Shown here piece after piece: positions 611 to 24,620 of a DNA stretch of 24,723 nucleotides. Position numbers and translations under genes: made by a program. The DNA is taken from IMG/VR virus record IMGVR_UViG_3300023687_000086; one strand, 5' to 3'. The notes beneath the pieces were generated by a model. The model did not search any database. It saw only the letters and a program-made list of their open reading frames with translations, and had not been told where the DNA came from. Origin of the DNA: an uncultured virus (IMG/VR IMGVR_UViG_3300023687_000086) (taxonomy: Duplodnaviria; Heunggongvirae; Uroviricota; Caudoviricetes). Numbering within the stretch: the first letter of the stretch is position 1; each line of letters starts with the position of its first letter.

Positions 611-635
611 TTTCCAAAATACCTTTTCATATTTA
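611..635 (+). promoter_or_regulatory. Class I element-specific promoter-like motif
   Basis: TTTCCAAAATACCTTTTCATATTTA; one of 12 copies with fixed spacing. Confidence 0.7.
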
Positions 636-665
636 GTGTATCAACATAGAAAGGAACAAAAAGCA

Positions 666-1484
666 ATGAAGCAAAAAGCAATTACAAGACTTCGAATATC
701 GTCCGTATTGATGACGATTTATTTCGTAGTATTTTTCCTGATCAACTTTAACTATATCGAGTCGTTAAATGAGTTCTTCTCGATCCTGGCTAACGATACG
801 AATTTTTCGAATTCCGTAAACACGGGCAGATACGAGATGAACGCAGAATTCATTCGAAAAGAATTGATTCTTGGAGCCGTTGGTATCGCAATCATCGGAT
901 TTGAAATTTCTTGCATCGCTCGATTGATCCACATTTATAAAGACCTGGCATTTAAGGATCCACTTACCGGTTCATTATCTAGAGCTTCTCTAAACGAAAC
1001 ATTCGATAAGCTGGAGAAGCAAAAGAAGGTAAAAGAGATTACGTACTTCTTATTTGATATGAACTATTTGAAGCAGGTTAATGATGGTTACGGCCATAAA
1101 ATCGGTGACGATTTCTTAATTGCGATGTCAAAGTGCATCTGTAGTGCATTTAAAGGAATCGGCGATGTATATCGTTTGGCCGGTGACGAGTTTGTAGCGA
1201 TTGTTACTAAGCCAGAAGAATTGGATCCGGAGCGATTGATTGGTCGCATCGATAAAGAAGTAGATGTATACAACACATCATACAACCGGACCAAAGTAGA
1301 TCTATCGTTTTCGAAGGGCTATTATACCGGTCCGTATGATTACCAGGACACGTATTTTAGAGACACTCTGTATACATTAGCAGACAATGCAATGTACGAG
1401 GAGAAGGAAGCGTTCCATCAGCTGCATCCAAGAGATGAGCGAATTGATCGCGTAACAAAAGAAGTTATCGTAAGACGTTTATAG
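666..1484 (+). CDS. Membrane-bound GGDEF-domain protein (diguanylate cyclase, AGDEF variant)
   Basis: Two hydrophobic segments, then DPLTG, FDMNYLKQVNDGYGHKIGD, YRLAGDEF and ADNAMY. ATG 666 chosen because RBS GAAAGGA lies at 649-655 (ORF track starts at 636). Confidence 0.9.
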   Translation: MKQKAITRLRISSVLMTIYFVVFFLINFNYIESLNEFFSILANDTNFSNSVNTGRYEMNAEFIRKELILGAVGIAIIGFEISCIARLIHIYKDLAFKDPLTGSLSRASLNETFDKLEKQKKVKEITYFLFDMNYLKQVNDGYGHKIGDDFLIAMSKCICSAFKGIGDVYRLAGDEFVAIVTKPEELDPERLIGRIDKEVDVYNTSYNRTKVDLSFSKGYYTGPYDYQDTYFRDTLYTLADNAMYEEKEAFHQLHPRDERIDRVTKEVIVRRL

Positions 1485-1493
1485 GAGGATGAA

Positions 1494-1790
1494 ATGGTTA
1501 TTAGAGTAAACAAGCCCGGATTCAAGCCGGTGTCAAAGACCGTAACATTTGGTTATACTCCAGAGGAGTATGATGAAATTTTTGGAAGAGCGACACATAC
1601 CTTCCATTTTTATCCAACCAAGAACGAATCTGAGTTTTTGGTATGTGTAAATGAGATCGAAAGAGATCAGAAAGTGGGCACGTTGAAAGTGCTCGATATG
1701 AAAAAGGCTGGTAACCAGACGCTGGTTAATAGAGCTCTGACATTAGATTACGGATTAACTGAATCCGAATACGAAATAATTTTCGTATAA
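1494..1790 (+). CDS. Hypothetical protein (98 aa)
   Basis: AGGAGG RBS directly after the DGC stop; followed by a terminator. Confidence 0.8.
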   Translation: MVIRVNKPGFKPVSKTVTFGYTPEEYDEIFGRATHTFHFYPTKNESEFLVCVNEIERDQKVGTLKVLDMKKAGNQTLVNRALTLDYGLTESEYEIIFV

Positions 1791-1791
1791 G

Positions 1792-1821
1792 AAAAGAGGT
1801 ACCATTGGTACCTCTTATTTT
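1792..1821. terminator. Bidirectional terminator between convergent genes
   Basis: Perfect hairpin AAGAGGTACC-ATT-GGTACCTCTT flanked by A/T runs. Confidence 0.85.
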
Positions 1822-2231
1822 ATTTCGACATTTTGAATCACATAAGAAAAAACATCCAATAATTCTTTTTTTGCATCCTCTGATATCGGCGCAAATTGAA
1901 CGAACTGTGTTAATCCGGTTTTAGCCGGCGACACATTCGGTTGTAATTGGCTAAGTACTTGTTTTTTATACGGGCAGGTAGGACAATTGATGCTACTAAG
2001 TACAGAAATGGTATTACTAGATTTCTCTTGAAGAACGCGGCAAATGGAAAACAGTTCCCACAAACTTAGAAGTTTCTTTTTAGCTTCGATATACGAAACG
2101 GTTTTTGGAGCTAATCCGGTTGCTCGGGCGATATCACTTTGCGATAGTCCAAGATGCCTTCGCTGTTTAATTATATACTCAACAAAAAAATCGTTTAGCT
2201 CTTCTTTATTACTTGCATCATAAATTGTCAA
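1815..2231 (-). CDS. XRE/Cro-C1 family HTH transcriptional regulator
   Basis: RRHLGLSQSDIARATGLAPKTVSYIE HTH; AGGAGG RBS 7 nt before a TTG start; CPTCP motif after the HTH. Confidence 0.88.
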   Translation of the reverse strand: MTIYDASNKEELNDFFVEYIIKQRRHLGLSQSDIARATGLAPKTVSYIEAKKKLLSLWELFSICRVLQEKSSNTISVLSSINCPTCPYKKQVLSQLQPNVSPAKTGLTQFVQFAPISEDAKKELLDVFSYVIQNVEIK

Positions 2232-2577
2232 ATAAATACCTCCTATTAGAAAAAATGGCGAACAAAATACGTCTAAATAGTGCTATTGTCAGATAGCGGG
2301 GGGGGGTGATTATTAATTTGTAATAATATGGAATAAGAACGATCATGTCGTCAAATGTAGGGATTTGCGTTCCACTTTCCAGCTTAGCAATCCTACTCTG
2401 TGGACAACCCACATCGAAACTAACCTCACGTTGCTTTAATCCAAGACTAACTCTTAATTTTTTTAGTAATTCTTTTAAGGTATAAGAATCTATGGTCTCA
2501 GAATTAGCATTTTCAAGAGCTATAAATGCCTCACATAATATTCGTTCCTGTTCTGATAGTTCCAAATTATTATCCAT
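2218..2577 (-). CDS. XRE/Cro-C1 family HTH transcriptional regulator
   Basis: LKKLRVSLGLKQREVSFDVGCPQSRIAKLESGTQIP HTH; AAAGGA RBS; C9 tract near the 3' end. Confidence 0.85.
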   Translation of the reverse strand: MDNNLELSEQERILCEAFIALENANSETIDSYTLKELLKKLRVSLGLKQREVSFDVGCPQSRIAKLESGTQIPTFDDMIVLIPYYYKLIITPPRYLTIALFRRILFAIFSNRRYLFDNL

Positions 2578-2619
2578 TATAATTTTCCTTTTTTGATAAC
2601 ACTTTTTGCGACAGCATAA

Positions 2620-2648
2620 AATATATTCCCATTTTGTAAAAAAGTCAA
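2620..2648 (-). promoter_or_regulatory. Housekeeping sigma-70/SigA-type promoter for the XRE pair
   Basis: Minus strand TTGACT-17 nt-TATATT, about 40 nt upstream of the 2577 start. Confidence 0.65.
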
Positions 2649-3017
2649 TCCCAAATTAGAATCAAACTATTTGACACAAATCTATTGAACTGCAAAAAAA
2701 AATGTGGATAATAAGAATACGTAATGTGCTTGTAACGCGAAGAAGTGCTCTGTTTTATTCTGGCGATTCCCGCTGCAAAACAATGGCGCCCCACAAAATG
2801 TCACGTCTTATGCCATCACTTTTCGCAGAACTAGGCAACAATCTTTTATATCAATAAAATGGCGATGCGAATTCGTAGGTTCTACTACACGCATCATAAG
2901 CCAAGAATTCAAATAACAATAACAACAGATTAATACATATTTCTTTATACGATAGATATCGGTCTTTTGTCTCTTTACATTCTTTTTTTTTGCGTGTCTA
3001 AATCTTCTTTTTTTTTG

Positions 3018-3042
3018 TATTGAAAAAAAATACCCATATTTA
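3018..3042 (+). promoter_or_regulatory. Class I promoter-like motif (degenerate upstream box) before the sigma-like gene
   Basis: TATTGAAAAAAAATACCCATATTTA, preceded by a T run like the other copies. Confidence 0.5.
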
Positions 3043-3084
3043 ACGTAGCTATAAAGAAATACAATTGAAAGGAGTAAAAAAGAA

Positions 3085-3837
3085 ATGACGGAAACTTTAA
3101 AAACTATTATGAGCACAAGACCTGAGAGCGGAGACGTAAATGAAATGCTTCAGTACAACAATGCATTGTACAGCTTGTTTTTGAATGGTGATCCGGCAGA
3201 CAGAAGGGAGGCCAGGAACGAGCTATTAACATTTAACGAGCGCTATTTTTGGTCGCTTTGCACTACAGGGTCATTTCGAAACATCTGGGTTCAGTATCCA
3301 CTTGCATCCTGTGAAGATGCGGTTGCTACCTTACAGATTGCACTGATTAGTGTGTTGGAAGATGAGATTTATGATAAGTGGGACAAATTGATTTGGCTGA
3401 AAACGATGGACCGTGCAAAAGAGATGATTCACGACCAGTATAATACTGGAGGTGCTGCGGGTTCACTAGTAACCAAGCATAGAATCAGAAACAATGAGAC
3501 AGATAAGGAGATTTCTGTGGTTAATGATTCTGCGCTTGATTACATGGGAGAAGAAAAGGACTCGATTTATGGTTCAACGAATCCATACGATTCACTTGAG
3601 TTAAAGGAAGTGGTCAGAAACTTTTTGCAAGAAGCTGTAGATAAGGAGTTCATTAGAGATTTGGACCGTGAGATCTTATATCTTAGATCATCTGGACTTT
3701 CGCACAAAGATGTCGCAGCAATTCTGAATATAGGCGAAGACAATGAAAGACAGCTTTACAAGAGAACCATCAATAGATGCCGCGCAGCATATAAGTATAG
3801 TGCCGACTTTAAAAACCTCAAAGAATTTGTAGCGTAG
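3085..3837 (+). CDS. Divergent sigma-70 family RNA polymerase sigma factor-like protein
   Basis: Region-2-like segments (DRREARNELLTFNERYFWSL; EDAVATLQIALISVLE) and a region-4 HTH (DREILYLRSSGLSHKDVAAILNIGEDNERQLYKRTINRCR); RBS GAAAGGAG. Confidence 0.72.
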   Translation: MTETLKTIMSTRPESGDVNEMLQYNNALYSLFLNGDPADRREARNELLTFNERYFWSLCTTGSFRNIWVQYPLASCEDAVATLQIALISVLEDEIYDKWDKLIWLKTMDRAKEMIHDQYNTGGAAGSLVTKHRIRNNETDKEISVVNDSALDYMGEEKDSIYGSTNPYDSLELKEVVRNFLQEAVDKEFIRDLDREILYLRSSGLSHKDVAAILNIGEDNERQLYKRTINRCRAAYKYSADFKNLKEFVA

Positions 3838-3881: not shown

Positions 3882-3906
3882 TTTCCTAAAACTCGTTTCA
3901 TATTTA
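3882..3906 (+). promoter_or_regulatory. Class I promoter-like motif
   Basis: TTTCCTAAAACTCGTTTCATATTTA. Confidence 0.7.
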
Positions 3907-3936
3907 TATGGAAATAATATAGAAAGGAAATATCGT

Positions 3937-5076
3937 ATGGATTCAAGAAATTATTCTACAAAAAATGAAATCGTAACCCGTAGTGCGGATAAGATTCGTC
4001 CGCATATTAATGGTATGCATATTATCGGCCTGGATATGGGATACTCTGGTCCAAAGTGTTATCACGAGCGCGGAAATTTTGTATTCCCGAACTACTGTAA
4101 GAAGATTACCGGCGAATTGTTTGGTGATTTGAACAGAACAGATATGGTGTACCAGAACATGGATACCAGGGAACGGTATGCAGTTGGCGCTATGGCGTTG
4201 AAGTCATTAAATGACGAAGACGTTGTATCAGAAGATGCCTTATATGGAAGAAACCATTATTTGCATCCGGATTTTAAGGTCGTGTTTGAAAGTTGCCTTG
4301 GTGTTGCGCTTTGGGATATTGATACAGACGGAAGCGATGTATTTTTACAGACGGGCCTTCCGCCGGCGTACATGGTAAAAGACGAACCATATATTCGCAG
4401 CGTCATGGAAGGGGAGCATCACTTCAAGTTGACTATCGGCCCGGAGACAAAGACTTTTCATATTACGCTTTCGAAGCAGAATGTGGATGTTATGAGTCAG
4501 CCAATGGGCACTTTAACTTCACTTCTGTTTGATGACAATGCAAAGCCGACTCCACATGCGATTCCGTTAATGAAGTCGAATCTTTTGGTTTTTGATAGCG
4601 GATTCGGCACATTGGATACATTTTTTATTCGTGCAAACCAGCTCGAGTCGAAAAACACGAATCCGAACCTTGGTATGAAGCGTGTTTTGACTGAAACCAG
4701 GGATTTGATCGCCCAGGACTTAAATGTATCCGTATCAATTCCGGCGATGCAGCGTGTTCTCAGAGACGGTGTTGTTAAGGTTAACGATCTGATGACGCTC
4801 CAGACAAAGGAATATCCGATTGATGACTACCTGGCACAGGCAAACAAGAAGGTATGCATGGAAGCGTTGGAGTCGATCAAAGATTACGTATTTAATATTA
4901 AGTACCTGATCATGACCGGCGGAACATCTGAAGCGTGGATTGATGAGTTCCGGAAGCGGTTGCAGACTACCGGTGTGGAAGTGTTGTCCGGAAAGACCGG
5001 TTCAAATCTTCCAGTAGTCTATGCAAATGCACGTGGATACTATTATTCGAGATTAAAGAAGCTTGGATATAAGTAA
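3937..5076 (+). CDS. parM: ParM/StbA-like actin-family ATPase (plasmid segregation type)
   Basis: Actin-fold motifs IIGLDMGYSGPK (phosphate 1), QTGLP, SQPMG, VFDSGFGTLD (phosphate 2), MTGGTS and ANARGY. Confidence 0.88.
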   Translation: MDSRNYSTKNEIVTRSADKIRPHINGMHIIGLDMGYSGPKCYHERGNFVFPNYCKKITGELFGDLNRTDMVYQNMDTRERYAVGAMALKSLNDEDVVSEDALYGRNHYLHPDFKVVFESCLGVALWDIDTDGSDVFLQTGLPPAYMVKDEPYIRSVMEGEHHFKLTIGPETKTFHITLSKQNVDVMSQPMGTLTSLLFDDNAKPTPHAIPLMKSNLLVFDSGFGTLDTFFIRANQLESKNTNPNLGMKRVLTETRDLIAQDLNVSVSIPAMQRVLRDGVVKVNDLMTLQTKEYPIDDYLAQANKKVCMEALESIKDYVFNIKYLIMTGGTSEAWIDEFRKRLQTTGVEVLSGKTGSNLPVVYANARGYYYSRLKKLGYK

Positions 5077-5093
5077 CGAAGGGAGTGTGAGCT

Positions 5094-5687
5094 ATGAGAG
5101 TAAAGATTCGCTTATACCGGCCACATGATATGGATCTAATCGCTCTAAAGCGAACAGAATCCTATAAATTGGGCGTCGAGATGAAACGGTGCCTGATTGC
5201 GTATGCAAATGGACATGTCTATACGCCACCGGAGTTCGACTTTAACGAGTCTCCAAAGGGATATGTAGGTAAGTCGTACCAGATGCATATCGAGTTGAAT
5301 AGCAATAAGCCTGAAGAGGCGGAAGCTATAAAGATGCTGCAAGAAATTCGGGCCGGATATCGCTGTGCCTTTGTTAAGACCTTGTTTCGTAGTAACTGTA
5401 TTTATTTACCATTGTTAGTATTTTCCGATACAAACGGGCTAGTTACATCGAAGGCCGAGAGTTTTTATAACTTCATGAAACAAACAGCAAGTAGCGTAGC
5501 AGCATTAAAGGATGAAACTATAGATAGAAAGGAGGAAGTATCCAAAGCTACAGAACCAGCAATCGAACAACAACCAATGGATCCAGAGCCGATTGTAGTA
5601 GAGCAACCGGTAAATACGGCCGCGTCACCAGATAGTGGAACCGATGATTTTGATTCATTGTTCGAAAGCCTAAGTGCACTTGGATAA
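5094..5687 (+). CDS. Hypothetical protein; candidate ParM adaptor/DNA-binding partner
   Basis: Directly downstream of parM with an RBS; basic N-terminus and acidic flexible C-terminus. Function inferred from position only. Confidence 0.6.
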   Translation: MRVKIRLYRPHDMDLIALKRTESYKLGVEMKRCLIAYANGHVYTPPEFDFNESPKGYVGKSYQMHIELNSNKPEEAEAIKMLQEIRAGYRCAFVKTLFRSNCIYLPLLVFSDTNGLVTSKAESFYNFMKQTASSVAALKDETIDRKEEVSKATEPAIEQQPMDPEPIVVEQPVNTAASPDSGTDDFDSLFESLSALG

Positions 5688-6016: not shown

Positions 6017-6041
6017 GTCCACAAAAAATGTTCCATATTTA
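6017..6041 (+). promoter_or_regulatory. Class I promoter-like motif
   Basis: GTCCACAAAAAATGTTCCATATTTA. Confidence 0.65.
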
Positions 6042-6049
6042 ACATCGTA

Positions 6050-6244: not shown

Positions 6245-6976
6245 ATGGCAAACACAGAAAGAGTAAGCTTAAAAGACAAGCACGTACAGGCAGAGTTGGA
6301 GCCTTTGGTTGGCAAGATTGTTGAAGTACACGGTATCCTCGTTGCAGGAGACCCTATCAATAAGCTCGAAGGTGAGGCCTTAGAGAAGGATATCAAGTAT
6401 CAGAGGGACGTTCAGCATAGACGTTACCTGACTAAGGAGCCATACATTAAGTTCCGCATCAATGATGTACAGATGGATCTTACAGAGAAGAATATCGCTA
6501 AGCGTATCGTTTACCAGAATATCTTTACAGATAAGGAGACCGGCGTAAGAGCGTTATCTGTTGAGTCTAAGACCAAGTTTTCCATTGGTTATCGCAACGG
6601 TGATAAGATCACTGCAATCAAGCTGGCTGCACTGGAAGGAAGACGTTTTGCTTTCAACCAGGGATTAACCGTAACATACGAGGTTTACAAGCCGAAGGAT
6701 GGCGATTGTGGAGTTGGTCTTGCTAACATCATCTTTGATGAGAAGCCGAAGTTCTATGAGTTCGTTGATCAGACTGATCGTATCGGAGCCGTTGAAGGCC
6801 AGAACTGGTCAGATGAAGTTGATGATCTTGGATTAGACGCTGCACCTGCACAGGACACACAGGCTGCTCCGGCAAGTGAGGCTACACAGGCTGCTCCAGC
6901 AGCAAACACTACTGCACCGGCAGCTGAAGCTAGTGCACCAGCAGATGAGTCTGACTGGGGAGCCGTTTGGGGCTAA
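6245..6976 (+). CDS. Hypothetical protein, possibly single-stranded DNA-binding-like
   Basis: Beta-rich basic core, Ala/Pro linker and acidic-aromatic tail ADESDWGAVWG; strong RBS; monocistronic. The CDS is secure; the function is tentative. Confidence 0.5.
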   Translation: MANTERVSLKDKHVQAELEPLVGKIVEVHGILVAGDPINKLEGEALEKDIKYQRDVQHRRYLTKEPYIKFRINDVQMDLTEKNIAKRIVYQNIFTDKETGVRALSVESKTKFSIGYRNGDKITAIKLAALEGRRFAFNQGLTVTYEVYKPKDGDCGVGLANIIFDEKPKFYEFVDQTDRIGAVEGQNWSDEVDDLGLDAAPAQDTQAAPASEATQAAPAANTTAPAAEASAPADESDWGAVWG

Positions 6977-7055: not shown

Positions 7056-7080
7056 TTTCCAAAACCTAGATCAATATTTA
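7056..7080 (+). promoter_or_regulatory. Class I promoter-like motif
   Basis: TTTCCAAAACCTAGATCAATATTTA. Confidence 0.65.
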
Positions 7081-7109
7081 ATTAGATAAAAAATAAAAGG
7101 AGGAAATAT

Positions 7110-9875
7110 ATGGCAAAAAAGAAAAAGAACCAATCATTTTTAGCCACAGTAAAAAAGACGTTCAAGAATATGAAGTATTGGTATGTAGCCGACGAAAATG
7201 GTCAGATTCAACATACGAAAAGAATCGTGTTTGAAGGCATTGTTTCGTTGCCAATCATCATATTCGAAGGTGTCAAAATCGGCTTCTACGCAAAGGTCGC
7301 CAATTTAAACACAGGGTTTCAGACATTCGCGGAAGGTCTTGTAACTCCAGCCTACAAGGTTCATGCACTTCGTCATGCTAACGATCTTACAGGATTTGGC
7401 AGTGCGTATTATGGATTCGATGCTAGTTATCTTGGCCTAATGTTGCTTGGATTCGCGGTTATTTTTGCATCTTTGTACATGACAGCAGAACGTAATCGTA
7501 ACAAATCGAGCAGAAAAGACGGTAATATGAAGTTCGGTCGAATTTCCGATTTCAATGAACAGATGGCATATTGTGATGAATCTGGAGAGCCGATTGATCC
7601 GCCGGAAAACAGTTACGAGCCAGGTAATATGATCTTGTCACAGAATGTTCGGTATTCCTTGGAACCAAAAGGAACAAATACATATTCAAATGCGCTTGTT
7701 ATTGGTGTAACCGGTTGTGGTAAATCATTTACGTACGTAAAACCAAATGTACTGCAGATGAATTCGTCTTATGTAATCACAGATCCAAAGGGCGAGTTGA
7801 CACATGACCTTGGCGCTGCGCTTATGAGGCATGGATATAGAATCAAGCTTTTTAACTTGAGCGAACAAACAGCATCCTGTAAGTACAATCCGTTCCATTA
7901 TATTCGTTCGGAGGCAGACGTTGTTACCATGGTTAACACGTTCCTCGAAAACACGAAAGAAGAGGATGCCGGCGGCGGAGATCCATTCTTCCCGTTAGCA
8001 GAAAAGAACTTTTACTTAGGCCTTTGCTTCTATATATATACGGTTTATAAGGATCAGCCTGAGAAGCAAACATTTAAGACGCTGTATGAGTTGTATCAGT
8101 CGGCAGACGAGCAGGAGGTTATGCTTAAGAAGGGTGAGGCAGCTCCGGAATCCAAGTTCGATGAAATCTTTAGAGAGCTTGGACAAAAGGATCCAACAAA
8201 TCCGGCGCTCCCATACTATGCAACATTCAAGAAAGGTTCTTCGAAAACGAAGCAGTCTATTCTTACGTCCGTTGGTGTTAAGCTTTGGTTCTTATCCGTA
8301 GGAACAGTAGCAAACCTTCTAAGCGGAGATACGCTGGAACTTGAGAAGCTTGGCGATCGAAAGACGGCATTATTTATCGTAATTCCGTCCGAAGTTAAGA
8401 CTTATAAGTTTTTATCTGCAATTTTGTTTACGCAGCTTTTCGAAACGCTCTATTACGTTGGCAATACGCTTAATGAGAAGAGCTTGTTATTGCAACATGG
8501 TAACTGCGTTGCATTTAGAAGTGATCCGTTTATTCCTGGCACAAAATCTGAAGACGAGGCAAGAGAGGCCATGGAAATCAAACGTGAGCTTTGGAAAAAG
8601 GCTTATATAGAAGACGATAATGAACTTATTGCAACAGATCCGGAAAAAGCTAAATATTTCGATACGCCAAATGAGCGTGGATTTAAGCCCTACCCAACAG
8701 CTAGACTCGTATACAATGATAGCGAGACCGGAGAACGTCGCGTATTAGAGGAGTTCCAATCCAGGGCGGAAGCAGATATGGTATACAAAGCAGTATGCGA
8801 GGGCGAAATTGTACGCGGAAAGAAGTCCTTAGTTAACCACGTGCGATTTATGCTGGATGAGTTCTTCTCACTTGGTAAGATTACAGACTTCGATCTTAAG
8901 ATCGCGACCTTCCGTTCACTTCGTATTTCCTGCGATATCATCGTTCAGTCGATTGCGCAGTTAAAAGAAATGTACGAAGACCGTGAAGCCAAGATTGTAA
9001 ACAACTGTAATGTTCAGATTCTGCTTGGTGCCGCATCAAATGATGATTGTCAGTATTTCAGTGACTTAATGGGTCAGACGACCGTCCGTTCGGAGTCTGC
9101 GTCTGTTGATCATAAAGGATTAATCCAGGGCGTTAGCAATACGAATATTGGAGATGGTGCACAGCTTTTGATGCGTCCGGAAGATATTCGAACTATGAGT
9201 AAGGATAAATGCTTGGTAATCGTCAACACGACAAAGCCACTCATTGATGAGAAGTATTCTTCGTTAGACCATCCTCGCTGGGGCGAAAGCTATTCATCCT
9301 TTGATCCGAACTCTCAGAAGAACGAGTTCCAGTTCCAGAGATTGTTCTATGTGGAGCAGGATGAAGCGAACCGTGTTGTAACGATTTTAAGTTCCATCGG
9401 TCAAACGCCGGCACTTGTTCAAAACGATAACAACAAGTTACCTAAGCGCGAACCAATCAAGGGTAAACGGCCAGATGAACAAGAGAAACGTATCGGAATC
9501 GATCCACATCCAGGACTTAGCCAGGAAGAGCGTCAAAGACGATATGAAAACGAGAAACGCAAGATGACCGCAGCGAATGAAGAAGTCGCAAATAAGAGCG
9601 CTTCTGAAAATATCGAGTCGGGGTTGATGTACAAAGCAAACTCGTTCGGTGAAATTAATATCGCAGAAGTATCAAGTCTTGGTATTGATACAGAAAAAAT
9701 CTTGATTGAAGCTGCAATGGGTAAGGGCGAATGGGAAGTGACTGATGGTGATACACCAGGAACGAAACGTATCCAGCCAACAAGTGACAACGCAATTGCG
9801 AATGCCATTAAAAAGGGAAACGTAAAAAAAGAACAGATTATTACAGACCCAAATGACATGTTTGATCTGTGGTAA
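7110..9875 (+). CDS. virD4: VirD4/TraG-family type IV coupling protein
   Basis: N-terminal TM segments; Walker A GVTGCGKS; YVKPN, TDPKGEL and YNPF; Walker B RFMLDEF; IVQSIAQLKEMY. Confidence 0.93.
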   Translation: MAKKKKNQSFLATVKKTFKNMKYWYVADENGQIQHTKRIVFEGIVSLPIIIFEGVKIGFYAKVANLNTGFQTFAEGLVTPAYKVHALRHANDLTGFGSAYYGFDASYLGLMLLGFAVIFASLYMTAERNRNKSSRKDGNMKFGRISDFNEQMAYCDESGEPIDPPENSYEPGNMILSQNVRYSLEPKGTNTYSNALVIGVTGCGKSFTYVKPNVLQMNSSYVITDPKGELTHDLGAALMRHGYRIKLFNLSEQTASCKYNPFHYIRSEADVVTMVNTFLENTKEEDAGGGDPFFPLAEKNFYLGLCFYIYTVYKDQPEKQTFKTLYELYQSADEQEVMLKKGEAAPESKFDEIFRELGQKDPTNPALPYYATFKKGSSKTKQSILTSVGVKLWFLSVGTVANLLSGDTLELEKLGDRKTALFIVIPSEVKTYKFLSAILFTQLFETLYYVGNTLNEKSLLLQHGNCVAFRSDPFIPGTKSEDEAREAMEIKRELWKKAYIEDDNELIATDPEKAKYFDTPNERGFKPYPTARLVYNDSETGERRVLEEFQSRAEADMVYKAVCEGEIVRGKKSLVNHVRFMLDEFFSLGKITDFDLKIATFRSLRISCDIIVQSIAQLKEMYEDREAKIVNNCNVQILLGAASNDDCQYFSDLMGQTTVRSESASVDHKGLIQGVSNTNIGDGAQLLMRPEDIRTMSKDKCLVIVNTTKPLIDEKYSSLDHPRWGESYSSFDPNSQKNEFQFQRLFYVEQDEANRVVTILSSIGQTPALVQNDNNKLPKREPIKGKRPDEQEKRIGIDPHPGLSQEERQRRYENEKRKMTAANEEVANKSASENIESGLMYKANSFGEINIAEVSSLGIDTEKILIEAAMGKGEWEVTDGDTPGTKRIQPTSDNAIANAIKKGNVKKEQIITDPNDMFDLW

Positions 9876-9917: not shown

Positions 9918-9942
9918 TTCCCAAAAAACGAATTCATATTTA
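9918..9942 (+). promoter_or_regulatory. Class I promoter-like motif
   Basis: TTCCCAAAAAACGAATTCATATTTA. Confidence 0.7.
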
Positions 9943-10007
9943 AGTTTGCGAATAAAAACAGTTTCAGAGATATTCGCAAATTAAATCATTAGAAAGGAAT
10001 ATATAGG

Positions 10008-10337
10008 ATGAAAGTAAAAGAGATGATAAGAAGTTTAAATGCAAAAGCAATGGGTGTATCTGCAACTGTAGCAGCTGCATTAACACCAGTTATGGCACAT
10101 GCAGCATCATTCAATTCGTATTCAGGTACCGATGGTAACAAAATCGTAGAAGGCGTTAAAAAACTTTTTGGAACCATTGGTACATGGGGTGGAGCGATTT
10201 GGCTTATTTCTGCTGTCTTTGCGTTGATTTTATCGATTCGAAACGAGGATACTGAGGGTCGTAATAAGTGTATTTTAAATATCTTAGCAGCAATTGCTTT
10301 GTTGTCTACAACCGGAATTATTAACCTTTTCTTCTAA
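10008..10337 (+). CDS. VirB2/TrbC-like pilin-type membrane protein
   Basis: Signal peptide ending PVMAHA, then two hydrophobic helices separated by a charged loop (SIRNEDTEGRNK); located between virD4 and the virB6-like gene. Confidence 0.7.
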   Translation: MKVKEMIRSLNAKAMGVSATVAAALTPVMAHAASFNSYSGTDGNKIVEGVKKLFGTIGTWGGAIWLISAVFALILSIRNEDTEGRNKCILNILAAIALLSTTGIINLFF

Positions 10338-10351
10338 ATGGAGGATCGTAA

Positions 10352-11083
10352 ATGAATGTATCAAGTCTTATGATTCTACTACTTGATATCGGAAAAGGAA
10401 TCACATCAAATGTCGATCCAACGGATGCAACGAGCGGTATTAATAAGTTCTTGATAAACTGTGGAACGGCGGTGGGAGCAATTCTCATCGCTGTTGCTAC
10501 ACTAAAAATGATAATTGCGTTAGCCGAAGAAAGTGTTGCAGAACGCCAAAAGGCGTCTTTACTCTTTGGCGTGGGAATTGTGTTCGTTAGTGTAGAAGCA
10601 GTGGTAAAGACACTTCTTGGGCCTAAAGGCTCGATTACAGAAGCGACCGGTTACATTACCGTGGCGCAAAATGTGCTATCTGTAATTGGTAGTATGGCGA
10701 GTTGGGCCGGAGCAATCATGATTATATTTGCGGTTTATTCTTTTATTCTCGCGATTGCACAAGAATCAGTAGAATCTCAAACAAAAGCAACAAATGCATC
10801 CTTGGTTGGAATTGGGTTCGTATCACTCCATTTCGTATGCGATGCATTAAAAAATAAGATTAGTTCAAAAGAGCCAACATCGTTCGTTACCGTAATCACT
10901 GGATGGTTGGGAAGTATAGCATCATACGGAGGCGCAATATTACTTGTGATGGCTATCTTTAGAATGATTATATCCATTCGCACAGAAGACCTCAAAGAGC
11001 GTAACGATGCAATTAAGCTGATGATGGTTTCAATAGCGTTGATTAGTTTCAAGTCTGTAATAAAAGCGTTTGGAATCGGTTAG
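10352..11083 (+). CDS. Membrane protein built of three tandem VirB2-like helical hairpin repeats
   Basis: Three GAI-hydrophobic-charged loop-hydrophobic units; the third aligns closely with 10008..10337. Confidence 0.7.
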   Translation: MNVSSLMILLLDIGKGITSNVDPTDATSGINKFLINCGTAVGAILIAVATLKMIIALAEESVAERQKASLLFGVGIVFVSVEAVVKTLLGPKGSITEATGYITVAQNVLSVIGSMASWAGAIMIIFAVYSFILAIAQESVESQTKATNASLVGIGFVSLHFVCDALKNKISSKEPTSFVTVITGWLGSIASYGGAILLVMAIFRMIISIRTEDLKERNDAIKLMMVSIALISFKSVIKAFGIG

Positions 11084-11098
11084 AAAGGAGGGAACAGT

Positions 11099-11938: not shown

Positions 11939-11958
11939 TATAAAAGAAAGGAATCAAT

Positions 11959-12690: not shown

Positions 12691-12956
12691 TTGTAATCGC
12701 AAAAGAGACTCCTTTCATTTTGTTATATAGCGATTACAAAAATAAAGATCCGAGATCAATTCTCCTTTCATGATACACAACACTCGGATCGGGGGTGAAT
12801 GGCGCAGTAATATGCGAATCGTTGCAATGGGCAACGAGATGGTTCGAATCCATCACATCTCTTCAATTGACGAATAGTTTGTCTCCTTTCACCGAAGCCA
12901 TGGCGGCTCGAAAGGGTCCGAATCCCTTTCTTCGGTTTCGAGATGCAAAATCTCAC
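12691..12956 (+). ncRNA. Candidate structured ncRNA with three anti-SD motifs and two tRNA-like modules
   Basis: Consecutive hairpins start right after a class II motif; CTCCTTTCA occurs three times; T-arm loops TTCGAAT and TCCGAAT. Confidence 0.55.
12791..12865 (+). tRNA. Atypical tRNA-like cloverleaf (pseudo-tRNA or mimic; no assignable anticodon)
   Basis: Acceptor-like GGGGGTG/CATCTCT; D-like CGCA-GTAATA-TGCG; 7-bp arm TCGTTGC-AATGG-GCAACGA; perfect T arm GATGG-TTCGAAT-CCATC; ends in TCA. Confidence 0.5.
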
Positions 12957-13834: not shown

Positions 13835-13859
13835 TTTGCAAGTATTCTGCTCATATTTA
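13835..13859 (+). promoter_or_regulatory. Class I promoter-like motif
   Basis: TTTGCAAGTATTCTGCTCATATTTA. Confidence 0.55.
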
Positions 13860-13881
13860 ATAAAAATATAAGGAGGATCAA

Positions 13882-15697: not shown

Positions 15698-15722
15698 TTC
15701 CCAAATTTTAGATTCATATTTT
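15698..15722 (+). promoter_or_regulatory. Class I promoter-like motif
   Basis: TTCCCAAATTTTAGATTCATATTTT. Confidence 0.65.
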
Positions 15723-15762
15723 ATTACGTAACTCAAAATTAGAAAAATCATGGAGGAATATT

Positions 15763-17440: not shown

Positions 17441-17465
17441 TTTCCGAAAAGCAAAACCATATTTA
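17441..17465 (+). promoter_or_regulatory. Class I promoter-like motif
   Basis: TTTCCGAAAAGCAAAACCATATTTA. Confidence 0.7.
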
Positions 17466-17505
17466 AGAACGAGGCAGGACATTCCTGTTTCGTTCTTATT
17501 TTTTT
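17464..17505 (+). terminator. Terminator-like hairpin overlapping the predicted start site of the virB4 promoter
   Basis: TAAGAACGAGGCAGGA-CAT-TCCTGTTTCGTTCTTA followed by T7. Confidence 0.7.
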
Positions 17506-17534: not shown

Positions 17535-20000
17535 TTGAGTAAGAAAACTGAAACTAAAAAGAAGCCCACTAAGAAGAAGCAGACAAAAGTCGAAGCTTCT
17601 GTAATGGGTAAGCTTTCAAAGGCCCAGCAAAAGGCCATGAAGAGTATCCAGGACTCGATTCCATTTGTGCGAGTATATGAAGATGGCGGAGATAAAAACC
17701 CGTGTACCGGTGTTATTGAGGTACAGGACGGTGTATTCACCAAGTCTTATGTCATTAACGACACGAATTACTCGGATGCTGGAGAAGAAAAACAGGAAGT
17801 GATTCTGGAGATCTTTAAGAAAATTTTGACTGGTTTTAATTCCGATTGCGGATATGAAATCACGATTAACAATCGCACGGTGGATCAGAAGGAATTTAAT
17901 AACAAGGTGCTCATGCCTTATGCGAACGATGATTACGATATGTTCCGTATGCAGCACAACGAGTTGGTCATTGATATGATGCAGCAGGGTAAGAACAACC
18001 TCCGTTCTGAGAAATATTTAACCATCACTGTTAACGAGGAAAGCATTGAAGCGGCATTATCAAAGTTCGTAACAATCGAGCGAGACATTAACCGCGAGAT
18101 GAAGAAGATCAATAATATTGGTCTTGAGGTTATTTCGTTGGAAGACCGTTTGGAAATCTTGCATGATATCTATAATGGTAACAAGGTTGGTAATTTCAAG
18201 CAGGTATTCAATCTGGATGCTATTGTTGCGCAGGGCATTTCAGTGAAGGATATTATTGGACCAACTGTTATGGATTTCTCGAAGACAGACTACTTTGTCA
18301 TGGATGAGCGATACGTAAGATCGTTTTTCCTGAAGAATATCCCATCGAGATTGTCTTCCACATTGCTTGAGAATTTATCCAATATTTCTGCGAATAGCTT
18401 AATCTCGGTTCACTATGAGATTCAACCGCAGGATAAAGCTGCTGAATTTGCATCGGCACAGGTTACCAATATCGGTGGTGAAGTTGTAAAAGCTCAAAAG
18501 GCTCTCACCAAGGCCGGCGCGTCTCCGGATCTGATTTCTCCGAAGCTTGCAACGGCTAGAGATGATGCATCCAGATTGTTAGCTCAGCTTACTGAAGGAA
18601 ACGAAAACTTGTTCCATGTAACTATCGCTGCTACTGTATTTGCTGATAATAAGGATGACTTAGATACTGTTACGAATCAGATTATGACAAGAGCTAGAGA
18701 GCAGCTTTGCACACTTGATACGTTAAAGGCGCAGCAGGAGCAAGGCTTTGATACATGCTTGCCATTGGGATTAAACCTGATTCATACACATCGCGTATTA
18801 CCTACGGATTCCGTATCTGCGATCCAACCATTTAGTACGCAGGAGTTGCAGATAAAAAATGGTTTCTATTACGGTCTGAACCAGTTATCAAAGAATATTA
18901 TTGTTTACAACCGAGGTATTTCGAATAACCAGAACGGTGTTATCTTGGGTGCACCTGGTGCCGGAAAATCATTCGCTGCTAAGATGGAGATGTATCAGGC
19001 TTATTTGAATACGCGTAACTCTCAGATCTTCATTATCGATCCGGAGCGAGAGTATGTAGGACTTGGTAACGCACTCAATGCAACCGTATTCCGTATTATG
19101 CCTGGTGGTACTACATTTATTAATCCATTGGATTTGGACATTTCTAGAGATGACGAGGGCGGCGATCCATTCGCTGAAAAGGTCGATTTCATTATTTCGA
19201 TTGTTGAGGCAATGCTTGGTGGCCGGAACACCTTAAACGGTTATTTGAAGAGCATTATCGATAACACGCTTCAGAATCTTTACGCGCCTTATTTGCAGCA
19301 GATTGAAAAGCAAGGCAAGACAATCGATACAGAGATCTGCCCTACTTTAAAGGATTTCTATGATGCCTTAATCGCCCGCAAGGAGCCGGAAGCAAAGAAC
19401 TTGGCCGCTGCTATCCAGATGTATTGCGTTGGTTCGTTGAACCTGTTTGCACATCGCACCAATATCGATACAGATAATCGTATGGTTATCTATGATACCA
19501 AGAATATTGGAACCAACTTAAAGGAACTTGGTATGCAGATTTGCTTGAACGATATCTGGAACCGAATGCTCGCAAACCGTAAGAGAAATGTTCGTACATG
19601 GTTCTATATCGATGAGTTCTATTTGTTGCTTCATCAGAAGTCCTCTGCAGAGTACCTGCAGATGGTATGGAAACGTGCCCGTAAGTGGATGGGTTCTCCA
19701 ACTGGAATCACACAGAACGTATCCGATTTGCTGGCATCCGAAGAAGGTAATACCATCCTTAAAACGTCCGATTTTGCACTATTGTTGAGTCAGTCGTTCC
19801 AGGATCGAATTGCATTGGCCGAAATTTATCAGCTGTCGGAAGAGCAGCAGGGTTATATCAATAATACATCGTCTGCCGGCGAAGGCTTAATTTATACGGC
19901 CCGATCTGTGGTTCCATTTGAGAATCATATTCCGCAAACCAGCGAAATCTACAAGCTGTTATCAACGAAAGCCGAAGATGCAGAAAACTTGAAAAAGTAG
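17535..20000 (+). CDS. virB4: VirB4-family conjugative transfer ATPase
   Basis: YYGLNQLS; Walker A GAPGAGKS; IIDPEREY; FINPLD; Walker B WFYIDEFY; KRARKW; GITQNVSD; TTG start with an AAGGAGG RBS. Confidence 0.95.
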   Translation: MSKKTETKKKPTKKKQTKVEASVMGKLSKAQQKAMKSIQDSIPFVRVYEDGGDKNPCTGVIEVQDGVFTKSYVINDTNYSDAGEEKQEVILEIFKKILTGFNSDCGYEITINNRTVDQKEFNNKVLMPYANDDYDMFRMQHNELVIDMMQQGKNNLRSEKYLTITVNEESIEAALSKFVTIERDINREMKKINNIGLEVISLEDRLEILHDIYNGNKVGNFKQVFNLDAIVAQGISVKDIIGPTVMDFSKTDYFVMDERYVRSFFLKNIPSRLSSTLLENLSNISANSLISVHYEIQPQDKAAEFASAQVTNIGGEVVKAQKALTKAGASPDLISPKLATARDDASRLLAQLTEGNENLFHVTIAATVFADNKDDLDTVTNQIMTRAREQLCTLDTLKAQQEQGFDTCLPLGLNLIHTHRVLPTDSVSAIQPFSTQELQIKNGFYYGLNQLSKNIIVYNRGISNNQNGVILGAPGAGKSFAAKMEMYQAYLNTRNSQIFIIDPEREYVGLGNALNATVFRIMPGGTTFINPLDLDISRDDEGGDPFAEKVDFIISIVEAMLGGRNTLNGYLKSIIDNTLQNLYAPYLQQIEKQGKTIDTEICPTLKDFYDALIARKEPEAKNLAAAIQMYCVGSLNLFAHRTNIDTDNRMVIYDTKNIGTNLKELGMQICLNDIWNRMLANRKRNVRTWFYIDEFYLLLHQKSSAEYLQMVWKRARKWMGSPTGITQNVSDLLASEEGNTILKTSDFALLLSQSFQDRIALAEIYQLSEEQQGYINNTSSAGEGLIYTARSVVPFENHIPQTSEIYKLLSTKAEDAENLKK

Positions 20001-20038: not shown

Positions 20039-20088
20039 TGTGAAAAATGGATTATTTTGTCACAAAACGATTTTTAATGATACGTATT
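20039..20088 (+). promoter_or_regulatory. Class II promoter-like motif with TGTGA-N16-TCACA palindrome
   Basis: TGTGA(20039)...TTTGTCACAAA-ACGATTTTT-AATGATACGTATT. Confidence 0.7.
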
Positions 20089-21613: not shown

Positions 21614-21638
21614 TTCCCAAAATATCGCCTCATATTTT
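21614..21638 (+). promoter_or_regulatory. Class I promoter-like motif
   Basis: TTCCCAAAATATCGCCTCATATTTT. Confidence 0.65.
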
Positions 21639-21663
21639 ACATAAAGAAATAAGGAGGCTAGTA

Positions 21664-21959: not shown

Positions 21960-21992
21960 TTTGTCACAAAACATGTCCAAATGATACGTATT
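21960..21992 (+). promoter_or_regulatory. Class II promoter-like motif (lacks the upstream TGTGA half-site)
   Basis: TTTGTCACAAA-ACATGTCCA-AATGATACGTATT. Confidence 0.7.
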
Positions 21993-22014: not shown

Positions 22015-22614
22015 ATGAAATCTAAAAATGCAAATAATAACGACACAAAGAAAAAGTCCATGTTGAGACGATTCTGCGATTCTACTGCCGGAGTGATTAC
22101 ATTCTGCATCTTGTTGTTCTTATCTATTCATTTTCTAGCGACGCCTGTGATTGTTGTTGGCGATTCGATGAATCCAACGTATGAGAACGGAAATATCACG
22201 TTATCGAATAGAGCGTGTTACAAAATTGATGAGCCAAAGCGGTTTGATGTTGTGGTGTTTAATCTGAATGGATCTGGAAACGGATTGGAACGAATTACGT
22301 CTGGAAACGCTTTTTATCTAATTAAGCGCGTAATTGGATTGCCGGGCGAAACTATTCGTATCGATGAAGCCGGAACGATTTATATTGACGGCAAAGCACT
22401 CGACGAAAACTATGGAGCGGAAACAATCAAAGATCCGGGGCGAGCAATTGATGAGATTGTGCTTGGTGATGACGAATATTTCGTACTAGGTGACAATCGC
22501 AATGATAGTGCTGACTCCAGACTCAAAGAAGTTGGTTCAGTTGAAAAGGAACAAATTGTAGGTAAAGTAGTATTTTCTGTTCCTAATTTAAAGGTATATA
22601 CGAAAGGTAAGTAA
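22015..22614 (+). CDS. lepB: Signal peptidase I (S26 family)
   Basis: TM anchor; GDSMNPT (catalytic Ser); LIKRVIGLPGE (catalytic Lys); GDNRNDSADSR. Confidence 0.95.
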   Translation: MKSKNANNNDTKKKSMLRRFCDSTAGVITFCILLFLSIHFLATPVIVVGDSMNPTYENGNITLSNRACYKIDEPKRFDVVVFNLNGSGNGLERITSGNAFYLIKRVIGLPGETIRIDEAGTIYIDGKALDENYGAETIKDPGRAIDEIVLGDDEYFVLGDNRNDSADSRLKEVGSVEKEQIVGKVVFSVPNLKVYTKGK

Positions 22615-23359: not shown

Positions 23360-23364
23360 GTATT

Positions 23365-23393
23365 AGGGCGGATAATTATCCGCTCTTTTTTTT
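23365..23393 (+). terminator. Intrinsic terminator
   Basis: AGGGCGGATA-AT-TATCCGCTCT followed by a T run. Confidence 0.85.
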
Positions 23394-23402
23394 ATTCCTT
23401 TT

Positions 23403-23427
23403 CGCGACACAAAAATTTCCATATTTA
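23403..23427 (+). promoter_or_regulatory. Class I promoter-like motif (degenerate upstream box)
   Basis: CGCGACACAAAAATTTCCATATTTA. Confidence 0.5.
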
Positions 23428-23463
23428 AGAATGTAAGTCGTTATAGTCGAAAGGAGTACGAAC

Positions 23464-23868
23464 ATGAATAGAGACTACAATGTTTTAGTAACCAAGAAAT
23501 TTGGAGTTACTTTGACGATTGAAGACGCCTCAATGACGGACATGAAATTAGAGAACATTTTTGGCGAAATGGTAAATGCTATCTCAAATGATTGGAGTGT
23601 AGAGGACATCGGTCAAATAGTCGTTACCTATCCAGATGAGAACGGAGTGTGTGAATCTGAAATAGATCTAAAGATTTCGTATGAAGCACATTGCACTGAC
23701 ACGGATGCGACTTGGGGATATTATGGCGGTAATCCTCCAGAACATGAGGAAAGCATTTGCATTGAAGCAAGTGATATTCAGTACGATATGAATAAGTACC
23801 TAAAAGAAAGATATCCAAAGATAACAGCATCAATCAGTGAAGCACTTGAGTCAAGAAGTGAATGGTAA
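23464..23868 (+). CDS. Hypothetical acidic protein
   Basis: GAAAGGAG RBS; 134-aa ORF followed by a terminator. Confidence 0.8.
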   Translation: MNRDYNVLVTKKFGVTLTIEDASMTDMKLENIFGEMVNAISNDWSVEDIGQIVVTYPDENGVCESEIDLKISYEAHCTDTDATWGYYGGNPPEHEESICIEASDIQYDMNKYLKERYPKITASISEALESRSEW

Positions 23869-23870
23869 AA

Positions 23871-23938
23871 AAAGTAGGACCCTCGTAACAGGGTCCTATT
23901 TTTGTGCACTAAAATAGAGCCGTATTCGCGGCTCTATT
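23871..23938. terminator. Two adjacent hairpins between convergent genes
   Basis: TAGGACCCT-CGTAAC-AGGGTCCTA with a T run, and AATAGAGCCG-TATTCG-CGGCTCTATT. Confidence 0.8.
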
Positions 23939-23943
23939 GGTTG

Positions 23944-24546
23944 TTAACCTTCAACTCTGTATGATTCTGGGTCATACTCAGATAATATCATGCGAGTCTT
24001 TTTCTTACGGTTCTTCTTATGCACAGCCTCCGCATCTTTGTAATTATACGACGCGATTGCACGAAGAGCGTCTTTCATGGTAGGTTCTATCTTAGGAAAA
24101 CCGATTTTATGTTCATGATATCCGCCACACGCATAATCATCGCGTCCAGATTCACGAGCACTAACTTTGTAGTTGCCATGGAACAAACGTATTGTGTCAT
24201 ATGAGAAGTCTATATAGAACGAATCGCCCTTAACCTTAAAATACACGCGATCCCCGTAGATTTGGCATTTAGCCTTCTTGTCAACAAAGAGTTCTTTCAA
24301 GATTCGGTTTGGAACACTCTTAAAGATTCGCTTATACACACTGACATTTGCAACGTAATCGGTAGCGCCAAGTGTTGTGTATACAAGATATTTGCAGCAC
24401 CTACAAATATTATGTTTGTTCGGCCGAAGCTTATACAGTTCGAGATCTCGATCTATAACCCAATTTGCGATATGATCACAGCCTCTGGCGTGAACAATAT
24501 GATTATTCGAATCCGTCATAATCAGCTTCCAATCTTTAGAAAGCAT
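23944..24546 (-). CDS. Hypothetical basic protein with Cys/His clusters (possible Zn site)
   Basis: AAGGAGG RBS on the minus strand; VHARGCDH...CRCC motif. Confidence 0.75.
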   Translation of the reverse strand: MLSKDWKLIMTDSNNHIVHARGCDHIANWVIDRDLELYKLRPNKHNICRCCKYLVYTTLGATDYVANVSVYKRIFKSVPNRILKELFVDKKAKCQIYGDRVYFKVKGDSFYIDFSYDTIRLFHGNYKVSARESGRDDYACGGYHEHKIGFPKIEPTMKDALRAIASYNYKDAEAVHKKNRKKKTRMILSEYDPESYRVEG

Positions 24547-24595
24547 ATATATTATGCGCCTCCTTCCTTTTGTAGTATTTGTTTCAGAGATAACT

Positions 24596-24620
24596 TAAAT
24601 ATGAGGGGCTTTTTTGGGGA
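24596..24620 (-). promoter_or_regulatory. Class I promoter-like motif (minus strand)
   Basis: Minus strand TCCCCAAAAAAGCCCCTCATATTTA, oriented toward gene 24546..23944. Confidence 0.7.

Follow-up and report, generated by a model that had tools for sequence, protein, structure and literature searches.

The question raised by this locus is how a large mobile element switches on its genes. According to the original prediction, a promoter-like motif present in 12 copies and a sigma factor encoded nearby form a private transcription programme. We analysed a 24,723-nt stretch (the window) of a 155-kb contig, of which ~130 kb lie outside. As the window encodes a partition ATPase and is related to the complete element G001 and to pCY360, we infer that it is part of a large conjugative plasmid from a Lachnospiraceae-type family. 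VirB4 and VirD4 of a type IV secretion system matched NF045971 and NF045973 with 773.8 and 374.7 bits, respectively, both above cut-off; neither a relaxase gene nor a replication origin was found within the window. Our results suggest that two motifs are likely promoters for plasmid-encoded sigma factors.

All 12 predicted copies of motif 1 were present at their positions, between genes and pointing toward the next gene, including the copy on the minus strand (24595..24620), which precedes ORF 23944-24546. The plus-strand copies lie upstream of a GGDEF gene (611..636, overlapping the U-tail of terminator 575-602), the sigma gene (3018..3043, with a weak upstream box, retained in the related loci L032, L053 and L007), an operon encoding an actin-like partition ATPase and, downstream, its partner (3882..3907, overlapping a terminator tail; genes 3937..5687), the gene for a probable phage-type ssDNA-binding protein (SSB; 6017..6042; gene 6245..6976), virD4, encoding a coupling protein (7056..7081, an AATATTT variant; gene 7110..9875), an operon running from pilin-like genes via a membrane protein gene to prgI (9918..9943, the top score; genes 10008..12468), ORFs 13882 and 14106 (13835..13860), ORF 15763 (15698..15723), virB4, encoding an ATPase (17441..17466, sharing bases with the 5' arm of a terminator; gene 17535..20000), ORF 21664 (21614..21639), and ORF 23464 (23403..23428, the lowest score). 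Judged by its position, and with no family match, the partner of the partition ATPase may be an adaptor.

The predicted distance of 14 nt between the start of the CC and the downstream box was found in eight of the 12 copies (seven CATATTT, one AATATTT). The consensus as written, TTYCCnAAA-N8-CATATTT, captures a genuine motif but is matched exactly by only five copies. The copies at 3018, 6017, 13835 and 23403 have degenerate upstream boxes. The pattern CC.AAA-N8-CATATTT occurs six times in the window, compared to 0.013 times on average and at most once in 300 dinucleotide shuffles; CATATTT by itself is not significant there (13 occurrences versus a mean of 7.8 and a maximum of 15). In a weight matrix search the 12 sites occupied the top ranks with scores of 20.2-34.3, the next site scoring 13.5, and leaving out one site at a time 11 of the 12 were cleanly recovered, the weak exception being 23403. 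A GT dinucleotide is found at the predicted start in 3/11 cases in the window, 15/30 in G001, 7/14 in C28, a related plasmid contig of genome G003, and 2/41 in chromosomal DNA. We also considered a sigma32 promoter and rejected it because of its spacing.

The position and orientation of motif 1 and its conservation in relatives agree with the predicted promoter function, as do RNA contig ends at one unit, and we conclude that motif 1 is likely a promoter. At the SSB-like gene, contigs from RNA libraries of three studies begin at 6060, 6083 and 6096, i.e. 10-50 nt after the predicted start (6047-6049), and contigs of the same unit end at 7009-7025, at a terminator; these ends give a weak hint of a motif-1 promoter. 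The contigs leave virD4 and most of virB4 uncovered, absent cover carrying no evidence. Directly behind the copy at 17441 we observed a terminator (17464..17505, plus strand) that the original prediction had overlooked. In read-through RNA it has a stability of -22.3 kcal/mol with the U-tail adjacent, and in an RNA starting at 17472 it is reduced to -7.2 and separated from the U-tail. Because motif 1 overlaps this terminator, virB4 should be readable from motif 1 while read-through stops.

A second bipartite motif, TGTCACA-N13-TGATACGTATT, had escaped notice earlier. It occurs in four exact copies on the plus strand, compared to none in 100 shuffles: a tandem pair at 12560..12590 and 12656..12686, the latter immediately upstream of a structured RNA candidate and ORF 13054, one copy at 20058..20088 upstream of ORF 20195, and one at 21962..21992 upstream of an operon with a signal peptidase I gene (22015..22614). 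Reading the gene list manually, we found that each of the 15 units other than the XRE unit starts with motif 1 or motif 2, never with both. Thus, the single regulon originally proposed gives way to two mutually exclusive promoter classes. Neither half of the window showed an excess of SigA-type sites (29 versus 33.6 and 33 versus 31.8), and the motif-headed units therefore have no other evident promoter. The structured RNA candidate (12690..12890, plus strand) contains three anti-Shine-Dalgarno-like CUCCUUUCA tracts, and its loops and the ORF 3085 ribosome site pair across 10 nt. Evidence against our preferred explanation comes from an unstranded RNA contig whose start, at 12536, precedes the first motif-2 copy. 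Apart from the four copies in the window, motif 2 was found three times in L007 and not at all in a further 2.14 Mb of DNA, redundant in part, or in viral contigs; unlike motif 1 it occurs only alongside the ORF 3085 sigma family, at two long loci. L007 has a second, RpoD-like sigma gene with motif 2 in front, for which no close homologue was present among the matches listed (120 of 200). These matches also gave no support for an RpoD-like sigma gene just left of the window, as L007 synteny might suggest.

The gene predicted to encode the sigma factor (3085..3837, plus strand) codes for 250 amino acids, and by its modelled folds the product is a divergent sigma-70-family protein, predicted to direct promoter-specific transcription. 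It comprises sigma2 (residues ~14-123) and sigma4 (~165-245); no sigma3 domain was recognised. For residues 14-123 of the model, alignment with SigC sigma2 gave Z 7.1 (rmsd 2.9, 87/89), and comparison with sigma2 of SigA and pro-SigK gave Z values of 7.4 and 7.1, all of which are middling for helical domains. TIGR02937 spans residues 42-234 with an E value of 3.9e-6, under its cut-off, and Pfam gave no sigma2 match. The helix-turn-helix of sigma4 is indicated by Sigma70_r4_2 matches in 12/12 homologues (best E 6e-10) and by a Z value of 9.0 for the model against sigma4 of both CnrH and SigD. A predicted complex with the β' clamp helices of RNA polymerase scored 0.85, the best control reaching 0.01, with a contact agreement of at least 86%, a partner pLDDT of at least 87, and the invariant D78 within the interface. 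This docking mark is attained by 116 of 157 solved pairs and 2 of 215 mismatched pairs, clamp-helix docking being a textbook pair that can pass by likeness, and the polymerase was taken from G003 and may not match that of the host.

The sigma family is rare. A tblastn search of 72,556 plasmid records (E 0.1) gave no match, viral contigs contained none either, phages gave no homologue by tblastn and only generic sigma folds, and a profile search at E 1e-12 was negative in all 401 genomes. In L053 the sigma factor is 27% identical and the partition ATPase 77%; the sigma factor thus diverges much faster than motif 1, which counts against its assignment to this motif. A derivation from the group-3-like plasmid sigma factors of G001, L062 and pCY360 found no support (hhalign probability 0.8%), and the two groups lie on opposite sides of a starred branch in a rough tree, in which row host_L157, a wrong-frame ORF, was disregarded.

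A SigA-type promoter, TTGAAC-16-GATAAT (2685..2712, plus strand), faces the sigma gene and is identical in L032, while the homologue in L007 is preceded by a perfect SigA-type consensus. Such a promoter was present at 3/3 loci with enough upstream DNA (the window, L032 and L007, all combining it with motif 1), and motif 1 at 4/4 loci with context. Between the two lies a conserved structured leader (2715..2960, plus strand), in which 7/27 pairs are changed on both sides, as judged from two sequences; neither this leader nor the RNA at 12690-12890 has an Rfam or tRNA match. Two tandem XRE-family HTH genes (1815..2577, minus strand, SigA-type site at 2648-2620) are divergent from the sigma gene. 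They had been proposed as the upstream switch, but this arrangement, with one XRE gene, recurs in L032 and not in the syntenic L007, so that it is not conserved and the proposal lacks support.

Motif 1 appears to be private to the plasmids, as predicted. In 401 genomes, a sample that may not include the host, hand counts gave 130 matches, spread over 101 of them, and 76 for the reversed control. This is near chance level and corresponds to ~0.1 match per Mb, compared to eight in the 24.7-kb window; viral contigs gave 45 single matches and no cluster. Among the long relatives, each has its own version of a CATA-type motif and encodes a different sigma factor of its own. G001 and pCY360 encode a group-3-like factor, are enriched in a CATA(T/A)T box and lack the ORF 3085 family, and G372:C6, likewise without this family, combines an RpoD-like factor with an enriched CATA-type box. 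The prediction of a sigma protein is thus supported; that ORF 3085 reads motif 1 is more tentative, as the CATA box is also enriched where its family is absent. The -10 box varies between plasmids (CATATTT, CATAATA, CATAGAA, CTATGTT). No CATA-type enrichment was found in pRUMAL01 (41 kb covered) or G156:C15. G003 yielded no member of either plasmid sigma family, which is uninformative because its element may be incomplete.

We tentatively favour, at not quite an even chance, that ORF 3085 reads motif 1 and a second, probably plasmid-encoded factor reads motif 2. The assignment could be swapped, with motif 1 being read by a group-3-like or RpoD-like plasmid sigma factor encoded outside the window, and ORF 3085, a second-tier factor made from motif 1, reading motif 2 while the structured RNA may feed back on its translation. 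This is a serious possibility, if some way short of even: it would fit a CATA-type box that is family-wide when the sigma family is rare, the confinement of motif 2 to the two long loci with this family, the fast divergence of ORF 3085, as expected for a small regulon, and the 10-nt pairing of the RNA loops with its ribosome site. The ECF-sized protein and the TGTCACA...CGT promoter moreover resemble ECF41. However, neither in the window nor in L032 or L007 is the sigma gene preceded by motif 2, hence there would be no autoregulation; no second sigma gene is seen within the 24.7-kb window, the RpoD-like factor could be the motif-2 reader in L007, and the independent elements with motif 2 number only two.

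That a host sporulation factor (SigE, SigK or SigG) reads motif 1 via its CATA-type -10 box is improbable. A C. difficile study (PMC3789822) lists mother-cell -10 boxes CATATTAT and CATATAAT, which come near CATATTTAA, in the same register, and proposes a TTT or TTA -35 for one promoter; the host of one relative encodes SigE/SigK/SigG types by manual reading of its proteins, and a chromosome sample of 400 kb would not suffice to reveal a 50-promoter regulon. Yet ATA 16-18 nt or AC 15-18 nt upstream occurs in 0/12 copies, which carry a TTYCCnAAA box 8 nt upstream instead, the -10 box differs from plasmid to plasmid, and sense/antisense counts of CATATT are 19/21 in chromosomal DNA versus 15/1 in the plasmid contig of the same genome. 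We consider it just as improbable that host SigA reads CATATT aided by a plasmid activator at the upstream box, similar to the appropriation by MotA of phage T4. CATATT agrees with TATAAT at 4/6 positions and the upstream box is nearer than a standard -35 would be, but the -10 box hardly varies across 8-9 bases, in contrast to SigA promoters, every long relative encodes a sigma factor, and the window yielded no activator candidate. Least probable is that the motifs are repressor operators or by-products of terminators: nine of the 12 motif-1 copies lie on the U-tail of an upstream terminator, but three have no terminator, the motif is non-palindromic, strictly oriented and of variable spacer, and the lack of SigA-type enrichment would leave the units without an evident promoter.

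In our preferred explanation, terminators divide the plasmid genes into short units, and at each of these a private promoter would start transcription anew. With the sigma gene primed by host SigA from 2685-2712, its product would bind core RNA polymerase, amplify itself from the copy at 3018 and transcribe all 12 units headed by motif 1 (partition, SSB, VirD4, pilin operon, VirB4 and cargo). The reader of motif 2 would be another factor, probably a second plasmid sigma, whose gene lies outside the window. Extended to the 150-400 kb plasmids of this type, a layered phage-like cascade is conceivable, in which SigA primes one plasmid sigma factor, this serves the CATA-type class and a second factor with its own class, and the anti-Shine-Dalgarno RNA closes the loop by damping the sigma mRNA. 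Turnover of sigma genes and of promoter boxes between lineages would then give a natural series of orthogonal sigma-promoter pairs; taken jointly, these steps are rather doubtful. Phage SPO1 has a sigma cascade (gp28, then gp33-34) with successive private promoter classes. Many short units and private classes are common to both, SPO1 being a phage and the window a conjugative plasmid.

The principle of an element-encoded sigma factor is already known from SigN of pBS32 and Sig7-8 of Tn916; new here are the sigma family, the two promoter classes and the family-wide turnover. SigN (ZpdN) of Bacillus subtilis pBS32 is likewise a divergent plasmid-encoded sigma-70 with a plasmid-confined regulon, its gene having a SigA-type and a self-read promoter (PMC6751061), as predicted here for ORF 3085, and the density of motif 1 matches this confinement. 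Its promoter, TTTACG-14-GATATA as counted from the published table, is bipartite and short-spaced like motif 1 but differs in both boxes, and tblastn of 72,556 plasmid records, which may not include pBS32, revealed no sequence link to ORF 3085. SigN is reported to reduce expression at the partition promoter and to result in death upon DNA damage (PMC6751061), whereas motif 1 heads partition and conjugation genes and is one of two classes. A further trait of the SigN type is repression by LexA with induction by DNA damage. Tn916 Sig7-8 is an element-encoded factor with positive feedback that gates conjugation functions, as proposed here, but is a split two-subunit sigma with one main promoter (10.64898/2026.10.01.756105), in contrast to a single chain here, with 16 or more promoter copies over 25 kb.

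Plasmid-encoded sigma factors have been called rare (PMC6751061). The cases studied in detail involve one promoter class each, whereas in this plasmid family, recurrent in gut and rumen metagenomes, two plasmid-private classes appear to govern partition and all of the transfer apparatus. If this is true, a plasmid that has just entered a cell would stay silent until its sigma factor has built up, a point relevant to the timing of transfer. The pairs would also offer Lachnospiraceae expression tools that are compact and independent of the host, as well as a natural series for studying sigma-promoter specificity. The distant relative pCY360, a megaplasmid of Butyrivibrio proteoclasticus (partition ATPase 33%, VirD4 28% and VirB4 34% identical), has no promoter programme in the available part of its description (PMC2914790), and we found CATAAT enriched in sense on it, 50 to 17, together with its own sigma gene of another family.

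All 12 copies of motif 1, TTYCCnAAA-N8-CATATTT(A/T), at 611, 3018, 3882, 6017, 7056, 9918, 13835, 15698, 17441, 21614 and 23403 (+) and at 24596-24620 (-) lie between genes, each facing the next gene, in agreement with the original prediction. Its written consensus held only in part, five of the 12 copies matching it exactly whereas the remaining ones deviate. CC.AAA-N8-CATATTT was observed six times with 0.013 occurrences expected (300 shuffles), and in a weight matrix the 12 sites score 20.2-34.3, the best other site reaching 13.5; CATATTT by itself is without significance in the window. The consensuses of SPO1, T4 MotA, ECF41 and sigma32 were used for comparison. Nine of the 12 copies lie on the U-tail of a hairpin terminator that ends the preceding unit, and at 17441 motif 1 shares sequence with the 5' arm of a strong terminator upstream of virB4. 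In read-through RNA this terminator forms a 16-pair stem (-22.3 kcal/mol) adjoining its U-tail, whereas RNA starting at 17472 retains only -7.2 kcal/mol and loses the U-tail contact. The layout would therefore block read-through while transcripts begun at the motif pass into virB4, as expected of a promoter with the predicted start. The motif 1 observation is real and fuller than first described.

The window encodes an actin-like partition ATPase, VirD4, pilin-like proteins, PrgI, VirB4, a signal peptidase, a GGDEF protein and a probable phage-type SSB, and the longest contig on which its proteins are recorded has 155,428 bases. Through the partition ATPase, 85 related loci were reached, both genome records among them being labelled as Lachnospiraceae. 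Two complete elements are more distantly related, G001 (199 kb, terminal repeats, 35% in the partition ATPase) and pCY360 (361 kb, 33%). From the nature of these relatives we infer that the window is part of a plasmid of a Lachnospiraceae host. With one mismatch permitted, motif 1 has eight matches in the window and, by hand count, 130 in 101 of 401 genomes of the family of G003, a genome with a related plasmid contig (at most six per genome; 76 for the reversed motif). Counts of G003 upstream regions with CATATT in sense/antisense are 19/21 for 400 kb of its chromosome and 15/1 for its plasmid contig C28. Relatives differ in the box: CATAAT occurs 33/10 in G001 and 50/17 in pCY360, and CATAGAA 19/4 in G372:C6, a contig of a further genome; in the related loci L006 and L035 the box is replaced by CTATGTTA. 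G001, pCY360 and G372:C6 each encode their own sigma factor, that of G372 having the element's own motif upstream. Because relatives have lineage-specific boxes, these sequences argue for putative plasmid-encoded readers. Counting against generality, no CATA enrichment was found in 41 kb of pRUMAL01 or in contig G156:C15.

ORF 3085-3837 (+), predicted to be a divergent sigma factor, is supported as a sigma-70-type protein by its sequence and predicted fold. Among 1.84 billion representatives it has 12 other matches, and all 12 aligned family members match sigma4; TIGR02937 covers residues 42-234 with a score below the cut-off, and Atlas places the protein with sigma-70 clusters at 0.96. In Foldseek the top entries for a structure model built from the alignment (pLDDT 76.2) are almost all sigma factors and polymerase, and its N-terminal domain resembles isolated sigma2 domains with Z 7.1-7.4. 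When modelled together with the beta-prime clamp region of G003, the ORF product gives a complex that scores 0.85 versus 0.01 for the best control, although such a textbook pair may pass by likeness; contact agreement is at least 86% and partner pLDDT at least 87, and of 157 solved pairs 116 attain the score mark, compared with 2 of 215 mismatched ones. Neither the host sigmas nor the group-3-like sigmas of the distant relatives belong to this family. The linker joining sigma2 to sigma4 contains a beta-hairpin in the structure model. Sigma identity is 59% in L032, 27% in L053 and about 23% in L007, three related loci, with 95%, 77% and 55% for the ATPase. The sigma diverges much faster than the adjacent gene, and in three pairs, where pairing was inferred, it is 28-38% identical versus 84-86% for the neighbour.

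A single regulon, as originally proposed, is too simple, since the element has two promoter classes whichever sigma reads which. Motif 2, TGTCACA-N13-TGATACGTATT, overlooked before, has four copies (12560, 12656, 20058 and 21962) and none in 100 shuffles. With the gene list judged by hand and two short spurious ORFs and the XRE pair left out, all 15 unit starts (gap of at least 60 nt) carry one of the motifs and never both, motif 1 heading 12 units and motif 2 three. The frequency of SigA-type sites in the window is not above shuffles.

That ORF 3085 reads motif 1 is our tentative assignment, held at not quite an even chance. Motif 1 precedes the sigma gene in the window, L032, L053 and L007, and in the three loci with enough DNA a SigA-type promoter, perfect in L007, lies farther upstream; this would resemble the priming/autoactivation layout of sigN, the sigma gene of Bacillus subtilis pBS32. 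On the same side, L007 has a second, RpoD-like sigma gene downstream of motif 2 and motif 1. Against this assignment, G001, pCY360 and G372:C6 all lack the ORF 3085 family yet still have CATA-type boxes, and the RpoD-like sigma of L007 has no close homologue among the matches listed (120 of 200). The swapped assignment, another plasmid sigma reading motif 1 and ORF 3085 reading motif 2, accounts for the boxes and seems only slightly less probable. It agrees with the far faster change of the sigma than of the ATPase (27% versus 77% in L053) and with the restriction of motif 2 to the window and L007 (no copy in a further 2.14 Mb of DNA, some of it redundant). However, motif 2 is absent upstream of the sigma gene at all loci examined, whereas motif 1 is there in four. 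Reading of motif 1 by a host sporulation-type sigma is disfavoured, as none of the 12 copies has a sporulation-type -35 element as given in the text of PMC3789822; promoter tables in the supplements to PMC7438776, PMC3789822 and PMC2914790 could bear on it. The XRE pair, proposed as upstream switch, is found divergent to the sigma gene of L032 but is missing at the corresponding place in L007, and is therefore at most a local switch.

Four of six listed RNA runs were compared with the window, all as contigs that are unstranded and may include DNA. Contigs from three studies (starts 6060, 6083 and 6096; ends 7025, 7025 and 7009) fall within the unit from motif 1 (predicted start 6047-6049) to the terminator at 7021-7048, a weak hint of promoter activity. 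Short contigs overlap the sigma, XRE and partition genes, and one contig starts at 12536, 5' of the first motif 2 copy, which misfits a clean start there. A structured RNA candidate at 12690-12960 (+; fold z -3.46), covered by contigs from two studies, has CUCCUUUCAU in the loops of two hairpins and once more as a third tract, and includes a tRNA-like part with a T-arm; neither Rfam nor a tRNA search gave a match. Its loops offer 9-13 nt of pairing with the ribosome sites of ORFs 3085, 6245, 20195 and 23464; loop 1 pairs with 4 of 25 window leaders versus 7 of 346 chromosomal leaders, pairing that could stem from a ribosome-site bias of the element itself. Downstream of the SigA-type promoter, the sigma gene is preceded by a conserved structured leader (2715-2960 (+); L032 625-880), with 7 of 27 pairs altered on both sides in the two sequences; L007 has a plain terminator-like hairpin instead. 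The SSB-like gene follows a leader of about 195 nt (6048-6244 (+)), kept in L008 1610-1830 and possibly autoregulatory.

By analogy, the system may work like SigN (PMC6751061) and Tn916 Sig7-8 (10.64898/2026.10.01.756105). Searches of largely open-access literature turned up no account of sigma factors or private promoters in the plasmid family of the window. It is conceivable, yet rather doubtful, that plasmid sigmas form a cascade of two tiers with feedback by RNA, the sigma-promoter pairs turning over throughout the family.

Among the relatives, G001 (L098-L107) has upstream sequences of two classes, one being AAAATAGCATAATATA and the other CATAATA with a TATTTGATGA element after it, and one 368-aa sigma with sigma2 present, sigma4 not recognised and a SigA-type promoter upstream. 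The strand-biased words TGTGCAGA and TTTAATGT beside CATAAT in pCY360 (L175-L193) may mark additional private promoter classes. At G372:C6 69459-70757 an XRE gene is followed by an RpoD-like 277-aa sigma preceded by the element's TTTTACGCATAGAA motif. The motifs of L035 (CTGATGCA-N8/9-GCTATGTTA) and L006 (GTGCTATGTTAAA) occur in loci without a sigma gene. In the window (13882-15659 (+)), ORF 13882-14109, which resembles a signal-peptide start, overlaps ORF 14106-15659 by 4 nt, possibly as one split surface-protein gene. An intergenic gap of L011 (13250-13570) contains multiple tRNA-like GGTTCGA stretches.
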